From NCBI GenBank assembly GCA_963677925.2, contig CAXXYH010000004.1, positions 1,600,001-1,664,000 on the forward strand: DNA of 64,000 nt. The letters are read 5' to 3'. The DNA comes from Spirochaetia bacterium (GTDB lineage Bacteria > Spirochaetota > Spirochaetia > UBA9216). The notes under the pieces are model-generated. The model was not told where the DNA came from. It did not search any database and saw nothing but the letters and a program-made list of their open reading frames with translations. The translations under genes and the position numbers were made by a program. Each line of letters starts with the position of its first letter. Within the stretch, counting starts at the first letter, position 1. Shown one piece after another: positions 15,638 to 37,410 of the stretch.

Positions 15638-17152
15638 ATGAAAAAAAAATATGTCGGTGCAGTTGATCAGGGCACTACAAGTACAAGATTTATACTTTTT
15701 AATAAAAAAGGTCTGATAGAACATTCCTATCAGCTTGAACATAGGCAGATATTTCCAAAACCGGGCTGGGTTGAACATGACCCAATTGAAATATGGGAGA
15801 AAACCTGCACGGTTATTACAGAAACACTTAAAAGAAACAGTATCAGTCCTGATGAAATTGATTCCATCGGTATTACAAACCAGCGTGAAACAACGGTGGT
15901 CTGGGACCGCTATACGGGAAAACCTCTTCATAATGCCATTGTCTGGCAGGATACCAGAACCGGCGATATCATTGCACGTGCATCAGGCTCTGAAGGTCCG
16001 GATCGCTACCGTGAAAAGGTAGGCCTGCCTTTGAATACCTACTTTGCCGGGTCAAAAATGCAGTGGCTTTCGGAGAATTCTGAAGAGGTAAAATCGGCAG
16101 TAGAGAAGGGCCGCGCTGTATTTGGAACAATTGATTCATGGGTAGTATGGAACCTGACAGGCGGTGCAGACGGCGGTTCTTTTGTTACAGATGTTACCAA
16201 TGCCAGCAGAACTCTTCTGATGGATCTAAAAACACTGCAGTGGGATTCCGGGATGATGGAAGTTTTTAACGTTAATCCCGATTCTCTTCCCGAAATCCGG
16301 TCTTCCTCAGCTGCTGAACCCTATGGATTTACCAGGACGGATGGTCCTTTCGGTGCTTCCATACCTGTCTGCGGTATACTTGGGGATCAGCAGGCCGCCA
16401 TGTTCGGTCAGGCCTGTTTTAATCAGGGAAACAGCAAGAATACCTACGGAACCGGCTGTTTTATGCTGGCAAATACCGGTGAAGATATCGTTCATTCAAA
16501 ATACGGGCTTTTAACCACTGTCCTGTACAGAATAGGTAAGGAGAATCCCTGTTATGCCCTGGAAGGCTCAGTTGCCGTCGCAGGATCTCTTGTACAGTGG
16601 ATTCGGGATAATCTGGGGCTGATACAGAATTCCCCCGATATCGAGGAGCTTGCACTGAAGGTTGATGATAACGGCGGTGTGTATTTCGTTCCTGCTTTTT
16701 CGGGCTTATTTGCTCCCAGATGGCGTCCCGATGCAAGGGGGCTGATAATCGGCCTGACCGGCTACGCAAACTCATCCCACATAGCACGTGCCGTTCTGGA
16801 ATCCACCGCATTCCAAACACTTGAAATCTTCGATGCCATGGAAAAAGATGCCGGTATTGAGATTGATTCGCTGAAGGTTGACGGCGGTATGACTGCCAAT
16901 AACCTGCTTATGCAGTTTCAGGCTGATCTGCTTGATGTTCCGGTAATCAAACCCGTTGTTTCCGAAACCACAGCCCTTGGCGCCGCCTATGCCGCAGGAC
17001 TTGCTACAGGCTTCTGGGCTGACCGCAGGGAACTTTCTGAACACTGGGTTGAAGACAGACGATGGCTGCCGAAGATGAGCCAGAGTGAAAGGGAGTCGAG
17101 ATTTAAGGGCTGGAACCGCGCAGTGGAAAGAACATATAACTGGGAGACGTAA
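15638..17152 (+). CDS. glpK: Glycerol kinase
   Basis: [45 protein letters not shown]. Confidence 0.95.
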
Positions 17153-17156
17153 GTAA

Positions 17157-18626
17157 ATGACCCTGATTCCGTTTTTTGCGAGGTTTTCGCTCGGTTATTA
17201 TCTGAATATTGTGATGTATTTCATTGTTTTAGGTGTTACGATCCGAATTCTTCTTGATAACCGGAATCCAAGCTGGTCTATATCAATGCTTCTGATTCTG
17301 TATTTTATTCCGATACTAGGACTCTTTATCTATTTCTTCAACGGTGTCGACTGGAAAAAGCGTAAAATTGTAAAACATATTCCTGAACGCATTTTTAAAA
17401 AGAATTTAAGTGATCTTATAGAGAAACAGACAAGCTTTCTGGAGAATGTTCCTTCGGATTTTGAAAATGACAGCGTGAAGATTATCAGAATGCTCTTAAA
17501 CAGCAGCGGTTCGATCATGACTATGAATAATGCCTGTACAATTTACAGCTCCGGAGAGACGCTTTTTAAGGATCTTATAGAAAATCTGAAAACCGCTGAG
17601 CGCTCGATTCATATGGAGTATTTTATCTGGAGATCTGATGAACTTGGACAGCAGATCAAGGATATTCTTATCAGCAAGGTAAAGGCCGGGGTTGAGGTAA
17701 GGCTGCTTTTTGACGGTGTGGGATGTTTCCGTGCCATGAGCCTTAAATATAAACGTGAACTTAGAAAAGCCGGAGTTAAAATACGGTATTTTCTTGATCC
17801 TCTGAATCCTTTCACAGGCTGGCTTCTTAATTACTGTAATCACCGGAAGATTCTTGTTATTGACGGAAAAACCGGATTCACAGGTGGAATGAATATAGGC
17901 CGGGAATATATTGATGGGGGAAAACGCTTTGAGACCTGGCGTGATACCCATATGAAACTTGAGGGTGATACTGTAAACCTCCTGCAGGCGGTTTTTATGG
18001 CCGACTGGGAAAACAGCGGCGGAAAACTGGTCAGTGAAGAGAAATACATTATTCCATCCGACATGTATCATACGGATTTACCTATGCAGATAATTACAAG
18101 CGGCCCCGATTCTGACTGGCACAGCCTTAAAGAGCTGTTTTTTACCCTTATTTCAAATGCAAATGAGGAAGTTCTTATTGCGAGCCCGTATTTTGTAATT
18201 GATTCTGCAATTGAAGAGGCAATCATTACTGCAGCTCTTTCGGGAGTCAGGATAAAGATAATCATGTGCGGAGCCCCGCCGGACAAATGGATTCCATTCT
18301 GGGTCGCCCAGACTTATTATGAACGGCTGATAGCAGCCGGGGCTGAGATTTACCAGTATCAGAAGGGATTTTATCACAGTAAATTCATTGCAGTGGACTC
18401 CAAGATTGCGACAGTAGGTACCTGTAATATGGATATCCGGAGTTTTCAGCTGCATTACGAAATAAATGCTATGTTTTATGACTCTGCTAAAGCTGAACAG
18501 CTTAGGAATGTGTTTATGGAAGACCTGTCGGGCAGCCGGAAGGTTACGCTCGAAGACTGTGAGCGGCTCTCATTTCTGAGTAAACTTCGAAACTCTGTCT
18601 TCAGAATCTTTGCGCCTCTGCTCTGA
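17157..18626 (+). CDS. cls: Cardiolipin synthase
   Basis: Two N-terminal TM segments; two PLD motifs (NHRKILVIDG, YHSKFIAVD). Confidence 0.92.
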   Translation: MTLIPFFARFSLGYYLNIVMYFIVLGVTIRILLDNRNPSWSISMLLILYFIPILGLFIYFFNGVDWKKRKIVKHIPERIFKKNLSDLIEKQTSFLENVPSDFENDSVKIIRMLLNSSGSIMTMNNACTIYSSGETLFKDLIENLKTAERSIHMEYFIWRSDELGQQIKDILISKVKAGVEVRLLFDGVGCFRAMSLKYKRELRKAGVKIRYFLDPLNPFTGWLLNYCNHRKILVIDGKTGFTGGMNIGREYIDGGKRFETWRDTHMKLEGDTVNLLQAVFMADWENSGGKLVSEEKYIIPSDMYHTDLPMQIITSGPDSDWHSLKELFFTLISNANEEVLIASPYFVIDSAIEEAIITAALSGVRIKIIMCGAPPDKWIPFWVAQTYYERLIAAGAEIYQYQKGFYHSKFIAVDSKIATVGTCNMDIRSFQLHYEINAMFYDSAKAEQLRNVFMEDLSGSRKVTLEDCERLSFLSKLRNSVFRIFAPLL

Positions 18627-18644: not shown

Positions 18645-18674
18645 AAAAAAAGACTCCCGGGGGTTGCCCGGGAG
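18645..18674 (-). terminator. Terminator between the convergent cls and transaldolase-like genes
   Basis: CTCCCGGG/CCCGGGAG stem preceded by an A-tract on the + strand. Confidence 0.65.
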
Positions 18675-18699
18675 CGGAAGGTTTATTATTAGGCCGATA

Positions 18700-19776
18700 T
18701 CATAGATCCGGATTTGGAACCATAAAGTCTCTGATTACTGCCAGGAGATCAGCATAGCCTGCGAGAAAGCCACGCAGTGTCCGGGCTGTTGCTCCGAAGG
18801 TTTCAAATTCTTCATGTGTAAGACCATCCGGTTCATATGCTTTGATAAAATCAGGAAATTTCTTTTTAAGCTCATCAATAATTGCAGGATCAACAGGGTC
18901 ATCCATTCTTGGTTTAACCTCAACATCTGACTGGTTGAACTGTACCTGCCATTTGTATGGAATAGTAAGAACTACGTCACCGCCGATGAATTCACTCCAC
19001 TGAAGGTGGTTTCTGTATGCTGCAGCAAGAAGTCTTGTTCGGAATCCCTTCTCGTTGTAATACTTGTAGGCATTCTTGAAAACGGCAACACCTGCCCAGT
19101 CAAGGACACCGGGAGTAACCGCAATGTTTTCTTTTGCTGCAATTACTTTCAGCCAGTCGTCAATCCGGCCTACCATTATGGTGCAGACAGGAGTCATTTT
19201 AGATACATCCTTGCCTTCGGCTTCCCGTCTCTTAAGTCCTCTTTCAACGGCTTCTGCAACTGCCACAGCCTGCGGACATGAAAAACTTACTGTTGCATTG
19301 ATATTAACACCGGCATATGTTGCTTCTTCAATGGCTTTCACTCCGGCTGCGGTTACAGGCATTTTTACCATCATGTTTTCAGCAAGTGTGTTGAAGCCGA
19401 TGGCCTGATCAGCCATTTTTTTCCAGTCACGATAGTACTGTGCATTGGTCTGTATGCTGATGCGTCCTTTCATGCCGTCATATTTCTTGAAGACAGGCAT
19501 AAGAAGTTCTGCGCCTTTAACAGCCATTTCTTCGTTAAGTTTCCATGCGATATCGATCTCAGTAGCTTCAGGCATTTCCTTAACAAGCTCTTTGATCCTG
19601 TCTTTCCAAAGATGCATCTCCTTTTTCAGCACATTTCCAACAATAACGGGGTTTGTTGTAGCTCCTGTTGCACCGTTTTCGATTGAATATTTAAGCTCTT
19701 CGATAGAACATGAATCATTCCATACATCGGTTGCTGTTGTTTCAACAGTCTCGTGAAGCGGACTTTTGTATCCCAT
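18700..19776 (-). CDS. Transaldolase/fructose-6-phosphate aldolase family protein (atypical)
   Basis: WNDS, GATTNP, MVKMP (Schiff-base Lys), INATVSFS, MVGRIDD, LAAAYR. Confidence 0.85.
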   Translation of the reverse strand: MGYKSPLHETVETTATDVWNDSCSIEELKYSIENGATGATTNPVIVGNVLKKEMHLWKDRIKELVKEMPEATEIDIAWKLNEEMAVKGAELLMPVFKKYDGMKGRISIQTNAQYYRDWKKMADQAIGFNTLAENMMVKMPVTAAGVKAIEEATYAGVNINATVSFSCPQAVAVAEAVERGLKRREAEGKDVSKMTPVCTIMVGRIDDWLKVIAAKENIAVTPGVLDWAGVAVFKNAYKYYNEKGFRTRLLAAAYRNHLQWSEFIGGDVVLTIPYKWQVQFNQSDVEVKPRMDDPVDPAIIDELKKKFPDFIKAYEPDGLTHEEFETFGATARTLRGFLAGYADLLAVIRDFMVPNPDL

Positions 19777-19815
19777 AAATGTCTCCTTCTGGATTTGTTT
19801 GGTATCTATTTAGAT

Positions 19816-19844
19816 AGTTTAGAACTTTATTTTTGATTTGTCAA
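19816..19844 (-). promoter_or_regulatory. Sigma70-type promoter of the transaldolase-like gene
   Basis: TTGACA-17 nt-TAAACT on the minus strand. Confidence 0.65.
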
Positions 19845-19856
19845 TTGTCAGACAAT
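19844..19856. promoter_or_regulatory. Candidate GntR/FadR-type operator
   Basis: Palindrome ATTGTC-A-GACAAT abutting the -35 element. Confidence 0.5.
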
Positions 19857-19923
19857 ATGAAATTGTGATTTTATTACAATATGAGAATATTCATCGAATC
19901 TGTTCAAATAGATAAAAAATTAC

Positions 19924-19937
19924 TGCAAACGTTTGTA
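19924..19937. promoter_or_regulatory. Candidate LacI-family operator (distal)
   Basis: TGCAAACGTTTGTA, a LacI-like palindrome with central CG. Confidence 0.6.
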
Positions 19938-20079
19938 TGATAACGATAAAAAAATCACTTTATATTGAAAAACTGGACGAATGTTTTACATAATAAAAAT
20001 ATGTGCATTTTGGTTAAAAATGTCATAAATATTTATAGGTAAAAGAAATAAGCGAATTTTATTTAGATAAACTTTTCTG

Positions 20080-20108
20080 TTGACAAAGAAACAATCTAGA
20101 ATGATAAT
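20080..20108 (+). promoter_or_regulatory. Sigma70-type promoter of the inositol operon
   Basis: TTGACA-17 nt-GATAAT. Confidence 0.7.
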
Positions 20109-20117
20109 ATCAGTAAA

Positions 20118-20131
20118 TGACAACGTTTGCA
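20118..20131. promoter_or_regulatory. Candidate LacI-family operator (proximal)
   Basis: TGACAACGTTTGCA just downstream of the -10; similar to the site at 19924. Confidence 0.65.
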
Positions 20132-20168
20132 AAGAAAGCTAAAACAATTCATTAAGGAGGATTATTTA

Positions 20169-21110
20169 ATGAAGAAAGGTTTGTTAGTACTTGTTGTATT
20201 ACTGGCGATTGCAGGAACAGTTTTTGCCGGTGGTCAGCAGGATGCAAAGAGCGGTTTTGAAGTAGGTTATGTTTGTAACAATTTTAACGACACATTCCAG
20301 ACCTATGTTATGGATGCTGCGGAAGCTTATTTCAATGAAAACGCAGACATCACAATTACTCTTCAGGATGCACAGGAAGATGTTATCAAGCAGCAGGACC
20401 TTGTTAACATTTTTATCGCGCAGGGTGTAGATGCTCTCATAGTAGTACCGGTAGATACCAGTGCAATGGGACCAATCGTAACTGCAGCAAATGAAGCTGG
20501 AATACCTCTCTGCTTCGTAAACAGAAACCCCTACGGCCAGGATGACCCACCCGCAAATGTTTACTATGTAGGCTCACAGGAAATCATTGCAGGTCAGCAG
20601 CAGATGAATGCAATGGGTGAACTTCTCGGCGGAAAGGGCGGAGTTGCTATCCTTATGGGTAAACTTGACAACGAAGGCGCTCTTAAGAGAACCGAAGGTA
20701 ACGAACAGGTTATCAGTGAAAAATATCCCAACATTAAAATTCTTGCAAAAGAAACCGGAAACTGGCAGAGAGACCAGGGAATGGTACTTACAGAGAACTG
20801 GCTGACTGCATACGGCTCAGGTCTTAACGGTATCCTTGCCAACAATGATGAAATGGCTCTCGGTGCTGTGGAAGCTCTTAAGGCTGCAGGAAGACAGGAT
20901 GTTTTTGTAATGGGTGTTGATGCTATACCTGATGCAAAGGTCGCAGTAGGAAGCGGTGATCTTGCAGCAACAGTTCTTCAGGATGCTGTTGGTCAGGGTA
21001 GAGGAAGTGCCATGGTTATCCATGAAGCACTTAAAGGTTCTACACCGGACAAGATCACATGGATACCGTTCGTTCTTATTACAAAAGAAAATCTTGCTGA
21101 TTTTCAGTAG
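20169..21110 (+). CDS. Sugar (inositol) ABC substrate-binding protein
   Basis: AAGGAGG SD, signal peptide ending VFAGGQQ, RbsB-like ANNDEMALGA, GVDA, TVLQD. Confidence 0.88.
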   Translation: MKKGLLVLVVLLAIAGTVFAGGQQDAKSGFEVGYVCNNFNDTFQTYVMDAAEAYFNENADITITLQDAQEDVIKQQDLVNIFIAQGVDALIVVPVDTSAMGPIVTAANEAGIPLCFVNRNPYGQDDPPANVYYVGSQEIIAGQQQMNAMGELLGGKGGVAILMGKLDNEGALKRTEGNEQVISEKYPNIKILAKETGNWQRDQGMVLTENWLTAYGSGLNGILANNDEMALGAVEALKAAGRQDVFVMGVDAIPDAKVAVGSGDLAATVLQDAVGQGRGSAMVIHEALKGSTPDKITWIPFVLITKENLADFQ

Positions 21111-21125
21111 AAAGAACTGTTAGAC

Positions 21126-21159
21126 AAAAAGGGAAAAGAGCAGTCTTTTCCCTTTTTTT
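21126..21159 (+). terminator. Intra-operon stem-loop/terminator after the SBP gene
   Basis: AAAAAGGGAAAAGA-GCAG-TCTTTTCCCTTTTT. Confidence 0.7.
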
Positions 21160-21179
21160 AAACTGAAATGGAGTTTTAG

Positions 21180-22700
21180 ATGGACGAAGATAAGATTCTT
21201 CTGAAAATGTCGAATATTGTAAAAACTTTTCCGGGTGTACAGGCCCTGAAAGGTGTAGAGCTGATCGTTAGAAAAGGTGAGATTCATGCCCTCATGGGAG
21301 AAAACGGGGCTGGAAAATCAACCCTCGTAAAATGTTTAGCCGGTATTCACAGTCAGACTTCCGGAGAGATCCTTTTTGACGGAAAAATCCGGGAAAATTA
21401 TAACACGGCTCAGGCACTACGCATGGGTATCTCCATGATTCACCAGGAATTAAGCCCTGTACTTCACAGGACTATCATGGAGAACATATGGCTTGGCAGA
21501 GAGCCTCTTAATAAGTTCGGGCTGGTTGATCACAATAAAATGTATGAGATGACCAAAGATGTCCTTAAGCAGATTGATCTTAAAGAAGACCCCCGGACAC
21601 TGATGGTTAATCTGACTGTAGCGAAAATGCAGATGATTGAAATAGCCAAGGCTGTTTCCTATGATTCTAAACTTATCATTATGGATGAGCCCACATCGGC
21701 GCTTACAGATAAGGAAGTAAATCATCTTTTTGAGATCATGAGAAAGTTAAAGGCTCAGGGTAAGAGCATCATATATATTTCACACAAGCTTGATGAAATT
21801 TACGAGATAACGGATCAGGTAACAGTATACAGGGACGGTGATTATATCGGTTCCGAAAAAACCACTGAGCTGTCTGTAGATCGGATGATAAATATGATGG
21901 TCGGACGTAATGTCGATGAAATGTTTCCGAAAATTCCCTGCGAGATCGGTGATGTGAAGATGGAAGTAAAAAACCTTACACATCCGACATCTTTCAGTGA
22001 TGTTTCATTCACCGTTAGAAAGGGAGAGATCCTTGGTTTTGCCGGGCTGGTAGGCGCCGGACGGACAGAGGTAATTGAAACCATTTTCGGAATCAGAACA
22101 AGACAGTCAGGTGAAATCCTGATTGACGGTAAACCGGTCAAGATTGATTCTCCAAGGGATGCCATAAAGCTAAAATTAGCGCTTCTGACTGAAGACAGGC
22201 GTCTTTCGGGTATCTTTCCAATGCTTACAGTAAGACTGAATATGGCAATAGCCACCATTCCCAAATTTCTTAACCGGGCCGGTCTGCTGAAAACTAAAAA
22301 GCTCAAGGACACCTGTGACGAGTATGTAACAAAAATACAGGTTAAAACACCAAGTCTGATGCAGCGGATTGAAAACCTCAGCGGAGGAAACCAGCAGAAA
22401 GTACTGGTAGCTCGCTGGCTCATGACTAATCCGGAAATTCTCTTTCTGGACGAGCCTACAAGGGGAATTGATGTAGGTACCAAGGCTGAAATACACAAGC
22501 TGATAACCAAACTTGCAGGTGAGGGTAAATCAATAATAATGGTTTCCTCAGAGCTGCCGGAAGTCATGGGGATGAGCGACAGAATAGTAGTAATGCATGA
22601 GGGCCGGGTAACAGGAATTGTTGATAACGATGAATCACTTACACAGGAAGTATTGATGTCATACGCGACCAATACTCATTCCGGCAACAAGACGGCATAA
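21180..22700 (+). CDS. Sugar ABC ATPase (RbsA/MglA type)
   Basis: GENGAGKST, LSGGNQQK, DEPTRGIDVG. Confidence 0.93.
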   Translation: MDEDKILLKMSNIVKTFPGVQALKGVELIVRKGEIHALMGENGAGKSTLVKCLAGIHSQTSGEILFDGKIRENYNTAQALRMGISMIHQELSPVLHRTIMENIWLGREPLNKFGLVDHNKMYEMTKDVLKQIDLKEDPRTLMVNLTVAKMQMIEIAKAVSYDSKLIIMDEPTSALTDKEVNHLFEIMRKLKAQGKSIIYISHKLDEIYEITDQVTVYRDGDYIGSEKTTELSVDRMINMMVGRNVDEMFPKIPCEIGDVKMEVKNLTHPTSFSDVSFTVRKGEILGFAGLVGAGRTEVIETIFGIRTRQSGEILIDGKPVKIDSPRDAIKLKLALLTEDRRLSGIFPMLTVRLNMAIATIPKFLNRAGLLKTKKLKDTCDEYVTKIQVKTPSLMQRIENLSGGNQQKVLVARWLMTNPEILFLDEPTRGIDVGTKAEIHKLITKLAGEGKSIIMVSSELPEVMGMSDRIVVMHEGRVTGIVDNDESLTQEVLMSYATNTHSGNKTA

Positions 22701-22711
22701 GGAGGAAAAAA

Positions 22712-23713
22712 ATGAGCGATGTTAAATCGAGTTTTAATAATGCTGCTTTAAAGCAGACGCTTCAAAAATACGGAATTGTATTCGTACTTATTTTAATGAT
22801 TATCGGGTTGAGTATAGCCTCTCCGGCATTCCTGAGTCCGCATAATATTTTTAATGTTCTTACCCAGAGCGCAATCTTTGGAATTATGGCCCTGGGACTT
22901 ACATTTGTAATTATTGCAAAGGGAATTGACCTTTCAGTAGGTTCAGTTCTTGCTTTTTCAGGTGTTGTAGCCGCAAGTCTGGCTCAGGCTGCTACTGCAA
23001 CTACCAAATACTTTCCCAACCTTCCGGAACTTCCGGTTTTTGTTCCTATTCTGGCCGCACTTGCAATAGGCGCTCTCTGCGGCGGTATAAGCGGTGCGCT
23101 CATAGCGAAGACCAGGATCCCGGCATTTATTGCCACGCTCGGTATGATGACTGTTGCCAGAGGTTTTGCTCTTATCTACTCAGACGGTAAACCTGTAAGT
23201 ACACTCATTCCCGGAATGACTGCCCTTGGCGGAAAGCTGTTCGGCTTCCTCCCGATTCCGGTAATTATCTATGTGATAATGATAATCATCAGTTCAATCC
23301 TGCTGAACTACACGAGATTCGGAAAGAATACATATGCCATAGGCGGTAATATTACAGCAGCCGAGATTTCCGGTGTTAATGTCAGCAAGAACCTCATCGG
23401 AATATATGCATACAGCGGTCTTCTGGCAGGTCTTGCAGCTGTAGTTTTTGCCGGACGTGTAGGGTCTGTTCATCCCGGTGCTGCAACCGGTTATGAGCTT
23501 ACAGCAATCGCCGCAACAACAATCGGCGGAACCAGCCATTCAGGCGGTATCGGAACAATATGGGGAGCCTTTGTAGGTGCTCTGGTTCTGGCTGTTATGA
23601 GAAACGGTCTTACTCTTCTTGGTGTTGATGCCTACTGGCAGCAGGTTACTGAGGGTGCAATAATTGTAGTTGCAGTTATTATCGATATGCGTAAAAACGC
23701 TAAAAAGAAATAA
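22712..23713 (+). CDS. Sugar ABC permease
   Basis: [30 protein letters not shown]. Confidence 0.92.
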
Positions 23714-23724
23714 TCAGGATCGCA

Positions 23725-24738
23725 ATGAATACAGTAAGAATTGGGTCTGTAGGCCTGGGAAGGCTCGGTCTTGCCCATGCTGAGAATATTACAAACAGGA
23801 TTCAGGGAGCGCAGCTTACAGCGCTCTGTGATCTTGATGAAAAGAAACTCAATGAAACAGCTGACAGACTGGGTGTTAAAAACAGGTTCACAGCATTTGA
23901 TGACATGATTAAATCGGATGAAATTGATGCTGTTGTTCTTGTTTCTCCCTCAGCAATGCATACCGGGCAGATTGAAGCCGCGCTTGCTGCAGGAAAACAT
24001 GTGTTCTCTGAGAAACCGCTCGGAGTTACTGTTGATGAATGCCTGAAAGCCGAGAAGGCTGTAGAAAAATATTCCGACAAGGTTTTCATGCTGGGCTTTA
24101 TGCGGCGTTTTGATGAATCATACAAATATGCACATGACAAGGTTGCTGCTGGAGAAATCGGTACTCCGGTTCTGTTCAGATCCTACAGTCAGGACCCTGA
24201 GAAGTTTATCGATGGAGCAATAGCATTCGCCCCGCACAGCGGAGGTCAGTTTCTTGATATGGCTGTACATGATATAGACCTTGCCAGGTGGTTCCTCGAT
24301 GATGAGCCTGAAACTGTCTATGCAATAGGAGGCTGTTACGCTCATCCGGAATTTGCACAGTATCAGGATGGTGATAATGTTTCGGCTTTGATGAAGTTCA
24401 AAAAAGGCGCTATGGCCTTCCTGTTCGCAGGAAGAACTGCACCCCACGGTTATAATGTAGAAACCGAAATAATCGGTACGAAGGGTACTCTCCGAATCGC
24501 ATCGGTCCCCCAGAAAAACCTTGTTGAAATACTGGACCCATATGGTGTAAGAAGAGAATGCAGTGAAAACTTTCTGGAGAGGTTTGAATCGAGTTACGTC
24601 AATGAAATCCAGGAATTTGTAGACTGCATAATAAAAAATAAAAAACCCGGAGTTACCGTTTATGACGGAACGAGAGTTTCAGAGATAGCATACAAATGCA
24701 AAGAGGCTTTTGAGAAGGGCGAAATGTTGAGGTTTTAA
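23725..24738 (+). CDS. Gfo/Idh/MocA inositol dehydrogenase (IolG/IolX-like)
   Basis: GLGRLG, HVFSEKP, GFMRRFD, FLDMAVHDID. Confidence 0.85.
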   Translation: MNTVRIGSVGLGRLGLAHAENITNRIQGAQLTALCDLDEKKLNETADRLGVKNRFTAFDDMIKSDEIDAVVLVSPSAMHTGQIEAALAAGKHVFSEKPLGVTVDECLKAEKAVEKYSDKVFMLGFMRRFDESYKYAHDKVAAGEIGTPVLFRSYSQDPEKFIDGAIAFAPHSGGQFLDMAVHDIDLARWFLDDEPETVYAIGGCYAHPEFAQYQDGDNVSALMKFKKGAMAFLFAGRTAPHGYNVETEIIGTKGTLRIASVPQKNLVEILDPYGVRRECSENFLERFESSYVNEIQEFVDCIIKNKKPGVTVYDGTRVSEIAYKCKEAFEKGEMLRF

Positions 24739-25764
24739 GTGAAGCGATCCCAGGTTACGATCAAAGATATAGCTGAAATTGCAGGAGTAAGTTTTTCCAC
24801 TGTTTCCCGATGTCTGAACGACAGTTCCGTTGTTTCGCCGGAGACCAAGAAGAAGGTCTGCGATATTGCGGATAAAATGGGCTTTGAGTTCAATTCTTCA
24901 GCGCGGGGGCTGATTACTTCGACTGTTGGAACTGTCGGAATTATTCTTCCGGAACAGTTTACCGAGATTTCAGTTAACGTATACCACGGGATGCTTATGA
25001 ACAGCCTGCGGACAAGCCTTGAAAAGGCTGATGTGGATTTGATAGTTACTTATCAGAAGAACCATTTTACAGGCAAAAACAATATTATGAGGCTGGTAAC
25101 GCGGCGGAAAATAGACGGACTGATAATGCTGGTTGAGAATATTGAACAGGAAACCCTGGACTTTCTTGAAGCAAGATCTGTTCCCTTTGTCTGCACTCAT
25201 TATCCGCCTGCTGATAACATCAAAAATCAGGATGTTATCTATACGGATCACTATGCAGGCGGCAAACTGGTGGCTGAACATCTTATAGGAAAGGGCCGGA
25301 GCCGGTTTATGATTCTTGCTGTTGAGGATGTTCACCTGGAGTTTCAGCTTCGTGAAAAAGGCTTCACAAAGGTAGTTAAGGAAGCCGGGTTTGAAGTCGC
25401 AAGGTTTGAAACAAAGTCGGTATTCAATGCTGCTTATGAGACAACTAGGTCGATGATTGATGAGGTCAGAAAGTACGATGCAGTTTTCGCTCTTAATGAT
25501 CTCATGGCACTTGGAACCATAAAAGCGCTGCTTGAAGCGGGTATCCGGGTTCCTGAAGATGTTGCGGTAGTCGGATACGACGACAGTGAGTTCAGCCGCT
25601 ACAGTGTTCCTATGCTGACTTCAGTGCATCAGCCCAAGGAAGAACTTGCCATGTTTGCGTGTCAGCGGCTTTTTCATCAGATGGAAAAGAAAAAAGAGAA
25701 GCAGGAGTTTCTGAAGAAATTGATGAGTATTCAGCCTGTTCTTATAGAAAGAGATTCCACCTGA
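24739..25764 (+). CDS. LacI-family transcriptional regulator
   Basis: VTIKDIAEIAGVSFSTVSRCLN, NDLMALG, VVGYDD; GTG start. Confidence 0.92.
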   Translation: MKRSQVTIKDIAEIAGVSFSTVSRCLNDSSVVSPETKKKVCDIADKMGFEFNSSARGLITSTVGTVGIILPEQFTEISVNVYHGMLMNSLRTSLEKADVDLIVTYQKNHFTGKNNIMRLVTRRKIDGLIMLVENIEQETLDFLEARSVPFVCTHYPPADNIKNQDVIYTDHYAGGKLVAEHLIGKGRSRFMILAVEDVHLEFQLREKGFTKVVKEAGFEVARFETKSVFNAAYETTRSMIDEVRKYDAVFALNDLMALGTIKALLEAGIRVPEDVAVVGYDDSEFSRYSVPMLTSVHQPKEELAMFACQRLFHQMEKKKEKQEFLKKLMSIQPVLIERDST

Positions 25765-25798
25765 AACTTTTAAATTCTTTATTTAGAGAAGGTAAGTT

Positions 25799-26689
25799 AT
25801 GGATAAAAACAAAATTAAGCTGGGTATGGCCCCTATAGGCTGGACTAATGATGATCTTCCCGATCTGGGAAGTGAAAACTCTTTTCAGCAGTGTGTAAGT
25901 GAAATGGCTCTCGCCGGATTTACCGGTTCTGAGGTCGGTAATAAGTATCCCTCCGATGCTGCTGAGCTGAAACCCTATCTTGATATCAGGGGAATAAAGA
26001 TCTGCAATCAGTGGTTCAGTTCATTTCTCTGTTCACAGCCCTATGCCGAAGTTGAGAAGGCTTTCCGGGCGCAGCTTTCATTTCTGAAGGCTCTTGGAGC
26101 TGATGTTATCGGTCCTTCAGAGCAGACCAGATCGAGTCAGGGCCAGGCTGTTCCTGTATTTTCAGGAAAGGCTGTATTTGACACTGAAGAGTTCAAAAAG
26201 CTCACTGAGGGAATGAACAAGCTCGGAAAAATAGCAAAAGATGAAGGACTCAGGCTAGCCTTTCATCATCACATGGGTACAGGTGTACAGACTATAGAAG
26301 AAACTGAACGTTTTCTTAACGATACCGACCCGAATCTTGTCTATCTGCTTTTTGATTCAGGACATTTTGCCTATGCAGGTCAGGATCCGGTTGCCGCCCT
26401 GAAGAAGTTTATAAGCAGGGTCGGGCATGTACATCTTAAAGACATCAGAACTGATGTATATAAAGAAGTAACTGCCGCAGATTCATCCTTTCTTGATGCA
26501 GTACGGAAGGGTGTTTTTACAGTTCCGGGTGATGGAAGCATAGATTTTGATTCAATTTTCAGTCTGCTTGATGAAGCCGGATACGAGGGCTGGATGGTTG
26601 TTGAGGCTGAACAGGATCCTGCAAAAGCCAATCCATTTGAATATGCTTTGAAAGCAAGAAAATATATTCAGGAACACGCAGGGCTTTAA
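25799..26689 (+). CDS. iolE: Myo-inosose-2 dehydratase
   Basis: APIGWTNDD, HHHMGT, HVHLKD, VVEAEQDP. Confidence 0.95.
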   Translation: MDKNKIKLGMAPIGWTNDDLPDLGSENSFQQCVSEMALAGFTGSEVGNKYPSDAAELKPYLDIRGIKICNQWFSSFLCSQPYAEVEKAFRAQLSFLKALGADVIGPSEQTRSSQGQAVPVFSGKAVFDTEEFKKLTEGMNKLGKIAKDEGLRLAFHHHMGTGVQTIEETERFLNDTDPNLVYLLFDSGHFAYAGQDPVAALKKFISRVGHVHLKDIRTDVYKEVTAADSSFLDAVRKGVFTVPGDGSIDFDSIFSLLDEAGYEGWMVVEAEQDPAKANPFEYALKARKYIQEHAGL

Positions 26690-26709
26690 GCTCGTGTAAG
26701 GGAAGAGAA

Positions 26710-27723
26710 ATGAATAATAAAATTAAACTTGGAATTATCGGCGCAGGCCGTATAGCAAAGGTTCATGCCGAGAGTATTACATCGGCCATTGCAGCAGCTG
26801 AGATTAAAACTGTTGCCGATCCGTATATAAACGAAGAAACTGAAAAATGGTTCAGGGAAAAAGGCATACCCAATGTTACAAAGAATGCTGCAGATATCTT
26901 TAATGACAGTGAAATCGATGCTGTACTGATCTGTTCTTCAACAGATACACATGCGGAATTTACCAGAAAGGCGGCAGAATGCGGTAAGCATATCTTCTGT
27001 GAAAAGCCTCTTGATCTTGATATCGAACGAATCAAGGAAACCCTGAAAATTGTTGAAGCCGCAGGCGTTAAGTTCCAGATTGGTTTTAACAGACGCTTCG
27101 ATCACAACTTCAAGGCTGTAAGGGATGCAGTTGAAGCAGGTTCCGTGGGTGAACCTCATATTGTGAGAATAACCTCAAGAGACCCGGCGCCGCCTGACCC
27201 CAGATACATTGCTGTTTCCGGCGGTATATTCATGGATATGACTATTCATGATTTTGATATGGTCAGGTACTTAAGCGGCAGCGAAGTTGATGAGATTTAT
27301 GTTCAGGGTGCAGTTCTGGTAGATCCTGAAATTGGAAAGGCAGGCGATATTGATACCGCAGTGATTTCGATGAAACTTCAGAACGGAGCAATTGCAGTAA
27401 TCGACAACTCAAGAAAGGCTGCCTATGGATATGATCAGAGAGCAGAGGTTTTCGGAAGCAAGGGTGCTGTTGAAACCTCAAATGATGCTCCAAGCACTAT
27501 GGTTATGAGCAACGAAGCAGGTGTAACTGCTGAAAAACCACTGTACTTCTTTCTTGAAAGATACATGGAGTCATTCTCACGTGAAGTAAGAATGTTTATT
27601 GATTCAGTAAAGAACGGAACCGAAACACCGGTTGGGGCTCTTGATGCCCTGCGTCCTGTTCAGATAGCAAAGGCTGCACGTGAATCCCTTGATACCGGCA
27701 AGCCTGTAAAAGTTAACTACTAG
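26710..27723 (+). CDS. iolG: Inositol 2-dehydrogenase
   Basis: GAGRIA, FCEKP, GFNRRFD, TSRDP, DMTIHDFD, YGYDQRAE. Confidence 0.93.
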   Translation: MNNKIKLGIIGAGRIAKVHAESITSAIAAAEIKTVADPYINEETEKWFREKGIPNVTKNAADIFNDSEIDAVLICSSTDTHAEFTRKAAECGKHIFCEKPLDLDIERIKETLKIVEAAGVKFQIGFNRRFDHNFKAVRDAVEAGSVGEPHIVRITSRDPAPPDPRYIAVSGGIFMDMTIHDFDMVRYLSGSEVDEIYVQGAVLVDPEIGKAGDIDTAVISMKLQNGAIAVIDNSRKAAYGYDQRAEVFGSKGAVETSNDAPSTMVMSNEAGVTAEKPLYFFLERYMESFSREVRMFIDSVKNGTETPVGALDALRPVQIAKAARESLDTGKPVKVNY

Positions 27724-27744
27724 TTTTCCAATAAGGGAGTTTAT

Positions 27745-28557
27745 ATGATTGCAAGAAAAGAAAAACCTTTTACGAAAGGCTATAATTCAATAACCGAGCA
27801 GCATGGGAAACATCCTGAAATGCTGCTTGATTTCGGAATACTGATGCTTGAGAGCGGTGAGGTTCATGAAGATTCTCAGAATAAGGAAAGAGCCTGGCTG
27901 CTTATTAAGGGTGAACTTTCCTTTGAATGGGAAGGTAAAACCGCCTCCGGTAAACGGATTTCATGCTTTGATGAAAATCCGGTAGTTCTTCATGTTCCGG
28001 CAGGTGTTGCTGTTAAAATTACCGCTGCGGCAGACTGTGAGATTGCAGTTGAAGCCTGCGATAATTCAAACAGTTTTAATGCCAGGTTTTACGCTCAGGA
28101 AGATATCAGGTGCGATATTTTCGGTGCCGGTACTCTTAACGAGGCTTCAACCAGGACTGTACGGACTGTATTTGACGGTGAAATTGAGCCGGCTTCAAAT
28201 ATGGTAATGGGCGAGGTTATAAATCATCCGGGAAAGTGGTCGAGCTTTCCTCCCCATGATCATCCGCATCCTGAAATTTATCATTACCGCTTTTTCCCGA
28301 AGCAGGGCTTCGGTGTTTCACTTCTTGAAGAGGATGCCTATGTGGTCAAGGACGGAGATTCAAGTCTGATTTTTCCTGACAAGACACATTCCCAGGTTGC
28401 TTCAGCCGGTTACGCAATGTACTACATCTGGATGATTGCCCACCTTCCCGGCGATAAATGGCTTCCCACAACAAGGTTCTTCAGAAAGGACCATGAATGG
28501 CTTAAGGAAAAGGATGCCAAAATCTGGCCTGAACTTAAGTATTCGGAAGCTGAATAG
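27745..28557 (+). CDS. iolB: 5-deoxy-glucuronate isomerase
   Basis: GEV...[21 protein letters not shown] cupin motif; iol context. Confidence 0.88.
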
Positions 28558-28573
28558 GAGAACGGGAGAGAAA

Positions 28574-30508
28574 ATGAAAACAGTAAGATTAACAGTAGCC
28601 CAGGCACTTGTCCGTTTCCTCGATAACCAGTGGATTGAGTTCGATGGAAAGCAGAATAAGATGTTCAGAGGGGTTTTTACAATTTTCGGTCACGGAAACG
28701 TAGTCGGTCTTGGACAGGCGCTGGAAGAGGATGCCGGCGAACTCATCGTTCACCAGGGAAAGAATGAGCAGGGTATGGGACATGCCGCCATGGGATTTGC
28801 CAAGCAGATGCTCAGGAAGCAGATCTATGTCTGTACCTCATCTGTCGGACCCGGAGCAGCCAATATGGTTACAGCAGCCGCCAATGCCACGGCAAACAGA
28901 ATTCCTGTACTTTTTCTGCCGGGCGATACCTATGCTACAAGACAGCCGGATCCTGTTCTGCAGCAGGTTGAGAGATTCAGCGACTATACGGTAACCGTAA
29001 ACGATTCATTCAAGGCTGTAAGCCAGTACTGGGACAGGGTAAACCGTCCTGAACAGCTTATGACCGCTATGATAAATGCGGTGAGAGTGCTTACCGATCC
29101 TGCTGACACCGGCGCAGTAACTGTTGCGCTTCCGCAGGATGTTGAGGGAGAGGCATATGATTACCCTGAATCATTTTTTGATAAGCGTGTACATAGAATA
29201 GAAAGAAGACCGCCGACTGATGCTATGATAGCCGATGCGGTTAAGGCGGTTAAGGCTGCCAAAAAGCCGATGCTGATTTGCGGAGGGGGTGTACGCTACT
29301 CTGAGGCTGCCGAAGAATTCAGGAAATTTGCCGAGGAATTCAATATTCCCTTCGGTGAAACCCAGGCAGGCAAGTCCGCAATTGTATGGGATCATGAACT
29401 GAATCTCGGCGGTGTCGGAACAACCGGCAACCTCGCTGCAAATCTTATTGCTCCGGAAGCCGATCTTGTAATCGGAGTGGGTACAAGATATACCGACTTC
29501 ACAACAGCATCTAAATGGCTCTATCAGAATGAAGATGTCAAGTTTGTTAATATAAACGTAGCGCCTTTTGACAGCTACAAGATGGACGCTGTCAGGGTAA
29601 CTGCCGATGCGGGTGCAGCATTATCAAAGCTGACTGATGCACTTAAGGCTGATGGTTATAAGAGCAGCTGGAAGAACGAGATTGCAGACGCCCGGGCCAA
29701 ATGGGCAGCTGAACTGCAGAGGCTCTATGAAATTGATTTTACAGGTGAAGGCTTTGTTCCCGAGGTTGATGGTCAGCGTGATGAGATTCTTCCTGAATTC
29801 TACAGTCAGTTCGGTGCTGCACTCACTCAGACCAAGGTTTTAGGATTGCTTGATGCCAACCTTGCCGATGATTCAATTGTTGTAGGTGCTGCAGGGTCAC
29901 TCCCTGGAGATCTCCAGAGGGTCTGGCGGGCTAAAAGGCCTGAAACATACCATATGGAATACGGTTTTTCATGTATGGGTTATGAAATAAATGCTGCACT
30001 TGGTGTTAAGCTGGCCTGTCCTGAACAGGAAGTATATGCACTGGTCGGAGACGGTTCCTACATGATGCTTCATTCCGAACTGGTTACCGCCGTTCAGGAA
30101 GGCCGGAAGATAAATGTAATTCTTCTGGATAATGCCTCCTTCGGCTGTATCAATAATCTTCAGATGGAGCACGGTCAGGGCAGCTTCGGTACTGAAACCA
30201 GGCATAGAAATCCTGAAACCGGTAAACTTGACGGACCTTTTATCAATATCGATTATGCAATGAGCGCGGCAGCCTACGGCTGTAAAACCTATACTGCCAA
30301 AACAGAGGACGAACTTGTTGCCGCATTGGAAGATGCGAAGAAGCAGACTGTATCAACTCTAATCGACATCAAGGTTCTTCCCAAAACCATGACTCACGGT
30401 TATGAGGCTTTCTGGAGGGTCGGCAGTGCTGAAGTTGCTAAGAATCCCGAGATCGTCAACCTGAACAGGAATATGAAGGAAGAGCTTAAGAAAGCCAGAA
30501 AGTATTAA
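28574..30508 (+). CDS. iolD: THcHDO acylhydrolase (ThDP-dependent)
   Basis: [12 protein letters not shown] (start moved to 28574), [27 protein letters not shown]...N. Confidence 0.95.
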
Positions 30509-30555
30509 AAATATCTCGCAAAATATTTAATAATTGTTTTATAATCATGATAACC

Positions 30556-30588
30556 GGGGCAGACAAGCTTATTGTTCTGCCCTTTTTA
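30556..30588 (+). terminator. Probable terminator after iolD
   Basis: GGGCAGACAA/TTGTTCTGCCC stem followed by a T-tract. Confidence 0.55.
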
Positions 30589-30604
30589 TTACCGTGGAGT
30601 CTTT

Positions 30605-31534
30605 GTGGAAGTGAAACTGTCAAACAAAAAAATGATAGGATGGTCAGTTGTTATTACTCTCTGTGCATTGTCCTGGGGAGGTATTCATCCCTCACTTAAA
30701 AGTGTACTAAATTCGGGCATGGCTCCTTTTCTGGCTGCCTTTCTTCGGTTTTTTATTGCCTCACTGACAACCCTGCCTTTCTGTTTAAAAAAATCAGAGG
30801 GCCGGAAGATGCTTGTTTTCAGGGATGCTGCAGTTATGGCAGTTCTGGGCCTCTACGGCGTAGGTTTCTTCTCACTGCTTTTAAGCTTCGGGCTCAGCTA
30901 CACGAATGCAACGAGCAGTTCGATTCTTATCAATTCCCAGCCTGTTTTCACTGTGTTTCTGGCGGCAGTGCTTCTTAAAGATAAAATAAAGACCCGGCCT
31001 CTGCTTGGTCTGATTCTCGGATGCTTCGGAATTATAATGGTTGTGACAAGGGGAGACTTTACCTCGCTTTCATTTGCCGATGATTATCTGATAGGTAACC
31101 TTATGTGTCTTGCTGGAGCTTTTTTTATCAGTCTGCATTATGTCTACCTGAAAAAATATATAAATATCTACGGATCAACTATTCCAAGTCTGATAACTTC
31201 AGTTTCGGGTGCAATAGTACTGCTTTTTGCCGCAATTGCGGGCGGCGCTGATTTTCGAAGCCTTGCAGATGTAAGTCCTGTCTCATGGCTGCAGATGCTT
31301 TATATAGGGGTTATTGCAACGGGATTATCCAATATTATTTTCAACAAGGCTCTGCATGTAATCGGTATCACAAAGGCTATCGGATTCAAGTTTCTTGTTC
31401 CGGTATTCGGAGTGGTTCTCTCCATTATACTTCTGGGTGAAAGAGCCAATCTCTGGGTTTATCTGGGTATTGCCGTTGTTCTTGCAGCAATAATGTTTAT
31501 ACAGATTCCCGGTAAAGCTAAAAAAAACGGCTGA
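30605..31534 (+). CDS. DMT/EamA-family transporter
   Basis: About 10 TM segments in two EamA halves; GTG at 30605 follows GGAG (start uncertain). Confidence 0.85.
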   Translation: MEVKLSNKKMIGWSVVITLCALSWGGIHPSLKSVLNSGMAPFLAAFLRFFIASLTTLPFCLKKSEGRKMLVFRDAAVMAVLGLYGVGFFSLLLSFGLSYTNATSSSILINSQPVFTVFLAAVLLKDKIKTRPLLGLILGCFGIIMVVTRGDFTSLSFADDYLIGNLMCLAGAFFISLHYVYLKKYINIYGSTIPSLITSVSGAIVLLFAAIAGGADFRSLADVSPVSWLQMLYIGVIATGLSNIIFNKALHVIGITKAIGFKFLVPVFGVVLSIILLGERANLWVYLGIAVVLAAIMFIQIPGKAKKNG

Positions 31535-32048: not shown

Positions 32049-32810
32049 TTATTTTCTATATCCCATATTAAGTGATATCTCTTCAGCTGCGGATTTCACT
32101 TCCTGTGATATCTCGGGGATTCTTTCAGCGGTAAATGTAATAACTGTCGAGGTTATCCCGACTGCACCGATGCAATTTCCTTCACTATTGAAAATCGGTG
32201 CTGCACAGCATCTGATATCATCTGCAAATTCAAGTTCATCAAGGGAAAATCCCTGTTCGCGGATTTTTTCTGTTTCCTTTCTCATCTGCTGAGGTGTCAC
32301 TATTGTGTGTTCTGTTCTGGCAGGCATGCTGTTGCCGGTCAGGTATTCATCAAGAGTGAAATTGCTTTCCATTGCAAGAAATATCTTCCCATGGGATGTG
32401 CAGTAGAGCGGAAAGAGGCTTCCGACCGGTGAAGAGAAACGAATAGGATGAGTGGTCAGTACCACATCCAGTATCATTGACTGCATGCCGACCGGTACTG
32501 CCAGATGTGCGGTTTCACCTGTTTTTTCCATTAATTTAATAAGGTATGGATTCACTACAGCCTTCAAATCTCTTCTCGACAGTGTCTGAAGCCCGTAATG
32601 AATGAGCATGCTGCCTAGAAAATATCTGTCACCCCGTTTTTCTATAATCAGCTCTTTTTCAAGTGTGAATAAAATTTTATAGACTGTTGTCTTCGCTATA
32701 CCGCTTTTTTTTACCAGATCGCTGAGTGTAAGCCCTTCATCATGCTCGGAGATATATTTTATTACATTAAAAGTTTTTTCCAGTACCGGAACATTATAAC
32801 TTGCTGCCAT
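32049..32810 (-). CDS. IclR-family regulator (KdgR-like role)
   Basis: HTH GIAKTTVYKILFTL, GETAHL, PLYCTSHGK, CCAAPI. Confidence 0.92.
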   Translation of the reverse strand: MAASYNVPVLEKTFNVIKYISEHDEGLTLSDLVKKSGIAKTTVYKILFTLEKELIIEKRGDRYFLGSMLIHYGLQTLSRRDLKAVVNPYLIKLMEKTGETAHLAVPVGMQSMILDVVLTTHPIRFSSPVGSLFPLYCTSHGKIFLAMESNFTLDEYLTGNSMPARTEHTIVTPQQMRKETEKIREQGFSLDELEFADDIRCCAAPIFNSEGNCIGAVGITSTVITFTAERIPEISQEVKSAAEEISLNMGYRK

Positions 32811-32876
32811 GCTTACCTGCCTGTTGATAATACAGAATAATGATAATTCTGCATAGGGCAGGGCGCCGGCTATCCC

Positions 32877-34465: not shown

Positions 34466-34480
34466 TTAGAACTCCTTGGA

Positions 34481-35755: not shown

Positions 35756-36228
35756 TACCTTTGCGCTCCTCTGATTCTGATCTTAAATATGTTGAAAAAG
35801 CAATAGAGTATTGACATTCCGCAGCTCAGGGGTACGCTCATCTGGATGTATTTCATGGGGATTCTAAGCACAGGAGATTCAGATGTACCTACCTTGGAAA
35901 TCCATGGAAGGCTGTATTTAATAAAGACAATATTCAGAACAGCAATCAGAACAATTCCAATAATTTCAACAGCAGCTTTTGCCGGTACTGGAAGGTTGTC
36001 GGTAAACACTCCGATTCGTATATGTTCATGTGTGCCTATTGATACTGCAGCCCCTATCGCTGTTGTATAAAGAAACAGGAATTCAAGCATTTCATTTCCG
36101 CCTGTAATTCCTGTGTTGAATACATATCTGAGAATTACCAGAAGAATTGTCAGAATCACTATTATCGAAAAGAGTACAGTTAATACGGCGGAAAAAATCC
36201 TGTTCAGTATAGTTTCAAATTTCATCAT
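35755..36228 (-). CDS. dctQ: TRAP transporter small permease
   Basis: 4 TM segments, LRYVFN, HIRI, SPVLRIP. Confidence 0.88.
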   Translation of the reverse strand: MMKFETILNRIFSAVLTVLFSIIVILTILLVILRYVFNTGITGGNEMLEFLFLYTTAIGAAVSIGTHEHIRIGVFTDNLPVPAKAAVEIIGIVLIAVLNIVFIKYSLPWISKVGTSESPVLRIPMKYIQMSVPLSCGMSILYCFFNIFKIRIRGAQR

Positions 36229-36284
36229 CTTGAAAAAGTCTCCTGAAGGGATAGTCCGGCAGGACCAGGCCTGCCGGCTGATAT

Positions 36285-37310: not shown

Positions 37311-37326
37311 AATAAACACCTCCTGT

Positions 37327-37367: not shown

Positions 37368-37410
37368 TATTAACATCATCAAAATATGCTGTCAAATTTT
37401 TTTCTGAATT

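Follow-up and report, generated by a model that had tools for sequence, protein, structure and literature searches.

A transaldolase-family gene divergent from a spirochaete inositol operon as a candidate for cleaving unphosphorylated 2-deoxy-5-keto-D-gluconate

The window, by which we mean the whole 64,000-nucleotide stretch of DNA analysed here (G000:C4:1600001-1664000), comes from the 5.04-Mb, 99.6% complete genome of a Spirochaetia bacterium (G000), and it holds an inositol (iol) operon together with a gene of the transaldolase family that is transcribed in the opposite direction from the same intergenic region. We refer to this gene, and to the long, Gln-type subfamily to which its product belongs, as TAL. 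The operon has no gene for the kinase IolC or the aldolase IolJ, and we consider here whether TAL might stand in for both by cleaving 2-deoxy-5-keto-D-gluconate (DKG) that has not been phosphorylated.

The inositol locus and its transaldolase-family gene

The genes of the locus (window positions 18700-31534) and the sites between and beside them are listed below.

18653-18675, minus strand: terminator-like hairpin 3' of TAL (9-pair stem with 7 GC pairs, then a T run)
18700-19776, minus strand: TAL (P0001), transaldolase-family gene, 358 aa (PF00923, 148.6 bits)
19924-19937: operator-like palindrome O1, LacI-type, TGCAAACGTTTGTA, 148 nt upstream of the TAL start codon
20080-20108, plus strand: promoter-like sequence before the iol genes, TTGACA / 17 nt / GATAAT (11/12 matches)
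20118-20131: operator-like palindrome O2, TGACAACGTTTGCA, just past the -10 hexamer
20169-21110, plus strand: periplasmic sugar-binding protein of an ABC importer (PF13407, 194.5 bits; signal peptide read)
21180-22700, plus strand: ABC transporter ATPase with two ATP-binding domains (from profile searches)
22712-23713, plus strand: ABC transporter permease (PF02653, 136.6 bits)
23725-24738, plus strand: IolG copy 1, inositol 2-dehydrogenase (TIGR04380, 376.7 against a cut-off of 355)
24739-25764, plus strand: LacI-family repressor within the operon (PF00356 and PF13377)
25799-26689, plus strand: IolE, inosose dehydratase (TIGR04379, 409.4 against a cut-off of 290)
26710-27723, plus strand: IolG copy 2 (TIGR04380, 472.6 against a cut-off of 355)
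27745-28557, plus strand: divergent IolB-type isomerase, "IolB2" (PF04962, KduI/IolB, 183.8 bits; TIGR04378, 102.8 against a cut-off of 205)
28574-30508, plus strand: IolD, ring-opening thiamine-diphosphate hydrolase (TIGR04377, 963.9 against a cut-off of 715)
30572-31534, plus strand: EamA/DMT-family transporter 3' of iolD (PF00892, 119.9 bits)

An AT-rich gap of 390 nt separates TAL on the minus strand from the gene train on the plus strand, and TAL looks monocistronic. The uptake genes, two dehydrogenases, iolE, iolD and iolB all lay where a preliminary description of this sequence had placed them, and the divergent position of the transaldolase-family gene in the same intergenic region was confirmed; the LacI-family regulator at 24739-25764 was absent from that gene list. 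The real start of the sugar-binding protein is ATG 20169, and that of IolD is ATG 28574, not TTG 28436. Both IolG copies, IolE and IolD passed the cut-offs that NCBIfam curates for them. The IolB-type protein shares 28% identity with a canonical IolB, and TIGR04378 is its sole NCBIfam match, yet under the cut-off; judged from its position in the operon it would act as IolB, and it is a putative member of the equivalog. No homologue of the EamA/DMT transporter was found in the 80 related loci described below, and its membership in the pathway is uncertain.

The window TAL clears the Pfam gathering score for PF00923 (27) and lies under all 10 NCBIfam transaldolase and fructose-6-phosphate aldolase (FSA) cut-offs; the best of these was the actinobacterial-type transaldolase model (116.9 against 367), and the FSA model TIGR00875 gave 43.9 against 245.95. 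We aligned the protein with Escherichia coli TalB and FsaA, taken from the K-12 record. Residues K138, D21, N42 and T162 are retained, corresponding to K132, D17, N35 and T156 of TalB (in what we take to be the TalB numbering) and to K85, D6, N28 and T109 of FsaA, and K138 aligns with the Schiff-base lysine of both enzymes. R204 and R255 align with Arg181 and Arg228 of TalB, which we take to be its phosphate-binding arginines. Gln109 replaces the catalytic Glu96 of TalB, a position at which FsaA has Gln59, and Met201 replaces TalB Phe178 and the proton-shuttle Tyr131 of FsaA. The active-site residue set of FsaA, including Gln59, and the roles of these residues are those given in PMC13259622. 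When 50 members of the subfamily were aligned, among them a paralogue from the same genome (P0002), Q109, M201, K138, R204 and R255 were invariant, as were D21, N42 and T162 (50/50 members). Because the Schiff-base and anion residues are kept while Glu has become Gln and Phe or Tyr has become Met, the TAL subfamily, judged by its residues, is a catalytically distinct, strongly conserved clade that is neither classical transaldolase nor FSA.

TAL resembles FsaA in having Gln at the Glu position (Gln59/Gln109) and the same Lys, Asp, Asn and Thr, and it differs from FsaA in the change of Tyr131 to Met201, in length (358 aa against 220 aa) and in being 23% identical. Classical transaldolases (TalB, the actinobacterial and the short types) have Glu96 and Phe178, neither of which is present in the window TAL. 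The nearest solved structure, 3R5E (E = 8e-16 across residues 27-249), is a Corynebacterium glutamicum transaldolase of the long actinobacterial type. It shares the insertion after the eighth-strand region, but the Gln of the TAL subfamily (SIQT) is Glu in 3R5E (SIEV), and the subfamily's Met is Phe. The sulfofructose transaldolase 8BC3 (226 aa) was a weak match (28.5 bits over ~70 residues) and belongs to another clade.

The preliminary description had noted that iolC, iolJ and iolA are missing from the cluster, and this proved to hold for the whole genome. No IolC in G000 scored over the TIGR04382 cut-off (best 127.8 against 300), and the best tblastn match to the IolC of a spirochaete of the same family (L110) was 27% identical. 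Nor was an IolJ found in G000: what spirochaete IolJ matched best, at 28% identity, was the housekeeping aldolase of class II (324 bits), and the only two PF01116 genes lie neither within the two iol clusters nor beside a PfkB match. Both query proteins from L110 had been verified (IolC by TIGR04382, 382 bits; IolJ by PF01116, 258.7 bits). IolA/MMSDH was likewise missing from the whole genome at its cut-off (best 323.5 against 448.5). G000 contains only two PF00923 genes, the window TAL and the 39%-identical paralogue P0002, and an ordinary transaldolase was found neither in G000 nor in its close relatives G001-G004, G006 and G008. The second of the two iol-type clusters lies outside the window (G000:C4:1046887-1054851; L021 4887-12851) and is also without kinase or aldolase; it comprises three xylose-isomerase-like barrels, a chiro-inositol-type IolG, a regulator, an IolB-like gene and IolD.

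Gene neighbourhoods and co-occurrence with IolC

A scan of one genome per species yielded 80 loci from 79 genomes, with TAL proteins 58-99% identical, which span Spirochaetota, Chloroflexota, Acidobacteriota, Omnitrophota, Rhodothermales and Bacillota. By tblastn of the window proteins, an IolD homologue lay within 10 kb in 23/80 loci, and in five Acidobacteriota genomes IolD stands 12-15 kb from TAL, just beyond the flank. We then took the neighbour families from an unbiased clustering of all open reading frames (ORFs) in the 80 loci, using NCBIfam to name a representative of each. In 37 of the 80 loci, one or more of IolB, IolD, IolE and IolA was within 10 kb of TAL, and many of the remaining loci are short contigs. 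The families found near TAL were a LacI regulator (32/80), IolG-type proteins (25/80), IolB (24/80, median 93 nt; the representative scores 299 bits, over its cut-off), IolD (20/80 in this clustering, median gap 35 nt, same strand in 18/19), IolE (17/80), IolA/MMSDH (13/80, 553 bits, median gap 65 nt), a short-chain dehydrogenase/reductase (SDR; 13/80) and aldehyde:ferredoxin oxidoreductase (8/80). IolJ-like genes were absent from all 80 loci, IolC-like genes occurred in two (25-29% identity), and the conserved neighbours of TAL in these loci included no kinase family and no pentose-phosphate genes.

In the cultured Anoxynatronum buryatiense and A. sibiricum, TAL stands inside the operon in the order IolG-SBP-ABC-Perm-IolG-IolD-IolE-TAL-x-IolB (SBP, binding protein; Perm, permease); the order in Anaerolineaceae is LacI-IolB-TAL-IolD-IolG, and other typical orders are TAL-IolA-IolB-IolD-IolE and LacI-IolD-TAL-IolA. 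The divergent type of IolB adjoins TAL in L108, L106, L042, L036, L056 and L044, and in Chloroflexota and Acidobacteriota TAL pairs with canonical IolB (299 bits) and IolA. Most non-spirochaete carriers of TAL also own an ordinary transaldolase, which argues that TAL there is an extra, specialised copy. The co-occurrence with iolBDE that the preliminary description had proposed to check is thus supported: across phyla, TAL is linked to iolB, iolD, iolE and iolA, and it often lies within the operon itself.

IolD was present in 62 of the 79 genomes (26/40 plus 36/39, E <= 1e-100), and IolC over its cut-off in seven (5/40 plus 2/39), all of them IolD-positive, leaving 55/62 without IolC; because these genomes had been picked by their TAL gene, the IolC count among them is no association test. 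We turn next to even samples. Among 201 genomes of the Chloroflexota class of G010, 34 besides G010 were IolD-positive, and of these 21 had IolC only, seven TAL only, none both and six neither. IolC was thus found in 0/7 TAL-positive and 21/27 TAL-negative genomes (Fisher P = 0.0003, uncorrected for kinship). The TAL orthologues in this sample are 55-65% identical, and 5/7 lie within ~2.5 kb of IolD. In an even sample of 201 Spirochaetia genomes including G000, with TAL orthologues counted at >=50% identity, IolD occurred in 48 and TAL in 56 (four of the latter partial or with in-frame stops; the fragment in G235 was excluded). Thirty genomes had both, 18 IolD only, 26 TAL only and 127 neither (odds ratio 8.1), so that TAL is enriched with IolD (30/48 against 26/153). 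The anticorrelation with iolC raised in the preliminary description stood in Chloroflexota and failed in Spirochaetia, because the latter include genomes with both modules and IolD genomes with neither IolC nor TAL.

Dual modules are seen in G144, where IolG-IolD-IolE-IolC-IolB-IolJ is followed 10 kb on by a separate TAL-IolB-IolA operon with the divergent type of IolB, and in G167 and G261, where IolB-IolC-IolD-IolA stands back to back with TAL-IolB(divergent)-IolG-IolE-ABC. These arrangements indicate that TAL comes with an IolB of its own. G144 also has, upstream of its TAL-IolB-IolA operon (L108 2395-4050), an ORF of 551 aa that contains a thiol-activated (cholesterol-dependent) cytolysin domain (143 bits). 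The cluster of G212, which has an IolC-like gene and TAL, contains a 339-aa ORF (L105 10933-11952) whose first half is an IolJ-type class II aldolase and whose second half is a xylose-isomerase-like barrel; it looks like a deletion that destroyed IolJ.

Fourteen IolD-positive Spirochaetia have neither IolC nor TAL. Four belong to one family, f43 (G161, G184, G206 and G226), and have IolD-like genes over the family cut-off; that of G161 (L114, a locus of 67% GC) is without iol neighbours, the f43 genes probably have another function, and we set these four genomes aside when describing the alternatives. Nine of the ten others carry an orthologue of a split transketolase, at least 54% identical. 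In G150 (L113) the order is TktN-TktC-IolG-LacI-IolB-IolD-IolE-IolG, with the transketolase directly upstream (L113 15283-17099, G150:C1; N-terminal part 286 aa, C-terminal part 319 aa); this operon has neither TAL nor IolC, and its IolG, IolE and IolB are 79%, 74% and 66% identical to those of the window. In G123, G150, G173, G174 and G216 no more than 20 kb separates the split transketolase from IolD, and in G215, which is also IolC-positive, the two are immediately adjacent. Orthologues 55-62% identical occur in eleven TAL-positive genomes as well (three with in-frame stops), so that the gene is not exclusive. In five of the six Chloroflexota genomes lacking both IolC and TAL (G435 was left out), we found only ~40%-identical split transketolases, none near IolD, which argues that this third module is not general. 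From its position, the split transketolase may be a transketolase-type ending of inositol breakdown.

Proposed cleavage of DKG and competing explanations

In the pathway that we propose, the ABC importer would take up an inositol, which IolG would oxidise to inosose; IolE would dehydrate the inosose, IolD would open the ring to give 5-deoxy-glucuronate, and the divergent IolB-type isomerase would turn this into DKG, each of these enzymes being assigned by homology. To this extent the window shares the canonical pathway of B. subtilis and Salmonella (uptake, IolG, IolE, IolD and an IolB-type protein), and it differs in that IolC, the class II aldolase IolJ and IolA are absent, IolB is divergent and TAL stands beside the operon. 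In the step that we infer, TAL would bind unphosphorylated DKG in place of IolC and IolJ, a Schiff base would arise between Lys138 and the keto group at C5, the C3-C4 bond would be cut and malonate semialdehyde would be released. In a transaldolase mode the dihydroxyacetone unit would pass to glyceraldehyde-3-phosphate, giving fructose-6-phosphate, and in an aldolase mode free dihydroxyacetone would be released, which is conceivable because of the FSA-like Gln109. The missing Tyr at the position of Met201 would argue for neither mode. G000 appears equipped for both, having a pyrophosphate (PPi)-dependent phosphofructokinase (868.6 bits against a cut-off of 588), a fused dihydroxyacetone kinase and a glycerol kinase, the sole one to pass its cut-off (window 15638-17152, 712 bits), which lies two genes from TAL and could phosphorylate released dihydroxyacetone. 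IolA, often encoded beside TAL elsewhere, uses malonate semialdehyde, the expected product of DKG cleavage; in G000, which lacks IolA, six aldehyde:ferredoxin oxidoreductases and generic aldehyde dehydrogenases are candidates for its disposal, and the operator search of this genome (below) pointed to no gene for its fate.

The replacement of kinase and aldolase by TAL in several phyla, the transketolase beside sister operons and the lack of a conserved kinase argue together that the window TAL cleaves unphosphorylated DKG, as in the transaldolase route of sulfoglycolysis (sulfo-TAL), and we put the probability of this at about 0.6. Transaldolases and transketolases take ketose donors with a free hydroxymethyl beside the keto group and D-threo configuration. 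By our own reasoning from textbook structures and the configuration of gluconate, DKG viewed from the keto end shows the layout of a D-threo ketose with a free hydroxymethyl, as fructose does; DKG-6-phosphate would lack the donor layout because its phosphate sits on the hydroxymethyl beside the keto group. For sulfofructose, PMC9594981 describes kinase-plus-aldolase (sulfo-EMP, Embden-Meyerhof-Parnas) and transaldolase (sulfo-TAL) routes, and also a transketolase route (sulfo-TK, SqwGH), in different bacteria. The preliminary description had reasoned from the same ketose layout and the same precedent; the layout is sound, and sulfo-TAL is a real precedent. By analogy, TAL would share with sulfo-TAL the cleavage of a ketose ending in a non-phosphate anion without prior phosphorylation, with the C3 unit going to glyceraldehyde-3-phosphate. 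The two differ in that the substrate of sulfo-TAL is a sulfonate and the predicted substrate of TAL a carboxylate, and in that the neighbours of TAL are iol genes, with no sulfoquinovose gene context. The route had also been called ATP-sparing, which would hold only via the PPi-phosphofructokinase of G000; otherwise phosphorylation is merely postponed, since fructose-6-phosphate or dihydroxyacetone still needs one phosphorylation. Taken as a whole, the earlier interpretation is partly supported. We found no description of a transaldolase or transketolase variant of inositol breakdown in open-access full text and bioRxiv. Dysosmobacter, in which a different class II aldolase is proposed to stand in for the missing IolJ (PMC13311982), was considered as a parallel and set aside as not relevant, since the phosphorylated route is kept in that organism.

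The operators were read by eye, and an inverted-repeat search of the intergenic region gave no match. With up to two mismatches, the 14-base palindrome occurs 16 times in G000, about the chance expectation; two of these fall within 350 nt in the window (O1-O2 spacing 194 nt). The meaningful ones are this intergenic pair and one before the second iol cluster, where a similar operator stands in a divergent promoter region. A similar pair ~150 nt apart precedes iolG in the transketolase-type operon of G150 (L113), and no such palindromes were found in TAL loci without an iol operon, which together indicate that the window operators are part of the iol promoter. O1, which lies upstream of TAL's best promoter-like site by ~80 nt, had been considered as evidence that TAL is co-regulated, and that reading was dropped on these same two grounds; inositol co-regulation of TAL in the window is possible.

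Several observations weigh against the cleavage of DKG by TAL. In Spirochaetia, IolC over its cut-off is found in 7/30 genomes with TAL and IolD and in 4/18 with IolD only, or in 11/30 of the former if four 282-300-bit matches adjoining IolD are counted, and IolC and TAL share one neighbourhood in G167, G261, G212, G144 and L039. Of the 153 IolD-negative Spirochaetia, 26 carry TAL, which stands among unrelated genes in the 85%- and 84%-identical relatives L024 (G002/G170) and L025 (G003/G263), both without any IolD. The closest relatives outside the genus (L024, L025 and L027; 83-85% identical) keep TAL behind genes for glycerol kinase and cardiolipin synthase (GlpK-Cls-TAL) without an adjacent iol operon, and in the window itself TAL appears monocistronic and divergent, with operators that seem to belong to the iol promoter. 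Since G000 and its close relatives have no ordinary transaldolase, TAL may have a housekeeping role, alone or additional. A quick tree placed the window TAL among six spirochaete proteins that form a well-supported group, with the Anoxynatronum proteins as its sister (SH-aLRT 89), and the iol genes of Anoxynatronum are the most similar to those of the window (49-76% identity); either the relatives outside the genus have lost the iol operon or the window has acquired it by insertion.

We consider unlikely the alternative that TAL is a housekeeping or general sugar-rearranging transaldolase that stands beside the iol operon by history, with DKG handled by an unrecognised enzyme. It draws on the absence of an ordinary transaldolase from G000 and its close relatives, the GlpK-Cls-TAL loci without adjacent iol genes, the 26 IolD-negative Spirochaetia with TAL and the lack of operators at iol-less TAL loci. 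Set against it are the exchange of Glu for Gln and the presence of neither Phe nor Tyr at the next key position in 50/50 members, conserved neighbours free of pentose-phosphate genes, the grouping of the window TAL with Anoxynatronum proteins that are encoded inside iol operons, and the fact that neither iol cluster yielded another candidate for the DKG step.

It is quite improbable, in our estimate, that TAL is a class I aldolase that replaces IolJ only and cleaves DKG-6-phosphate made by an unrecognised kinase. Some clusters do pair IolC with TAL, as in G167 (L106), which has IolB-IolC and no IolJ in the 19.5 kb covered, and in G212, where an IolC-like gene and a truncated IolJ fragment fused to another domain adjoin TAL, and G000 has many PfkB and FGGY kinases. 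However, kinases are not conserved beside TAL and IolC-like genes are as rare as stated above, DKG-6-phosphate carries its phosphate where the known donors of transaldolases and FSA are free, FSA using dihydroxyacetone (PMC13259622), and the transketolase of the sister operons has the same requirement for a free hydroxymethyl. We regard as similarly doubtful, and improbable, the view that TAL acts at another point: on another product of the divergent IolB, on an intermediate from another inositol isomer, or in a partly overlapping polyol or keto-acid route. The low likeness of the window IolB to the canonical protein and its score under the family cut-off would allow for this, as would the dual-module genomes, which pair canonical IolB with IolC/IolJ and divergent IolB with TAL, and the SDR and aldehyde:ferredoxin oxidoreductase genes beside TAL; the pairing of TAL with canonical IolB and IolA in Chloroflexota and Acidobacteriota speaks against it. 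We retain the cleavage of unphosphorylated DKG as our preferred reading.

Neighbouring genes, the paralogue P0002 and wider meaning

The genes for glycerol kinase and cardiolipin synthase (window 15638-18626) converge on TAL, and the order GlpK-Cls-TAL is retained in the relatives L023, L025 and L027. The protein encoded at 14147-15463, upstream of the glycerol kinase gene, is 438 aa long and has repeats of DUF285 (218.9 bits), a family originally reported from Mycoplasma. Beyond the iol operon lies an unsaturated-uronate module (32049-37382), which consists of an IclR regulator, the enzymes KduD (411 bits) and KduI (434.8 bits), and DctPQM, a transporter of the TRAP type; in the relative L027 this module adjoins the IolB-like gene. 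It is followed at 37411-40862 by what is probably a rhamnose module, in which an AraC regulator is accompanied by L-rhamnose isomerase (623 bits) and a class II aldolase-like protein of 372 aa.

The paralogue P0002 (G000:C4:274777-275757) is also of the Gln type and agrees with the window TAL in having Gln and Met at both key positions. Its gene set lies outside the window (G000:C4:274777-279622; L022 9760-14622). One neighbour is an SDR that scores best with the model for gluconate 5-dehydrogenase (308.6 against 369); beside it are genes for a GntR regulator, for an MFS transporter and for a reductase of 2-hydroxy-3-oxopropionate (tartronate semialdehyde; 474.2 against 397). We found the set again in G142 (paralogue and reductase each 60% identical) and not in G091 or G275, that is, in one of three genomes checked. 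By its gene content it may be a kinase-free route for 5-keto-gluconate, whose cleavage would give tartronate semialdehyde; we offer this as a lead, not proof. A broader reading, which we put forward tentatively and do not expect to hold in full, is that the steps after IolB, like those of sulfoglycolysis, have three interchangeable endings (IolC/IolJ, a Gln-type TAL and a split transketolase) and that Gln-type TALs are general cleavers of unphosphorylated keto-sugar acids, the window copy converting DKG to malonate semialdehyde and P0002 converting 5-keto-gluconate to tartronate semialdehyde.

In guts, soils and sediments, inositol freed from phytate is a major carbon source of plant origin, and the pathway of its breakdown is treated as textbook. 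Two cultured Anoxynatronum species with TAL inside the iol operon make the proposal directly testable. If it is true, the scoring of inositol use would change, as genome surveys keyed to iolC would miss such organisms, and the transaldolase family would gain carboxylate ketoses as a new substrate class and biocatalysis a new enzyme that forms carbon-carbon bonds. The triad of EMP, transaldolase and transketolase routes known from sulfoglycolysis would then be a general solution for ketoses with a non-phosphate anion.

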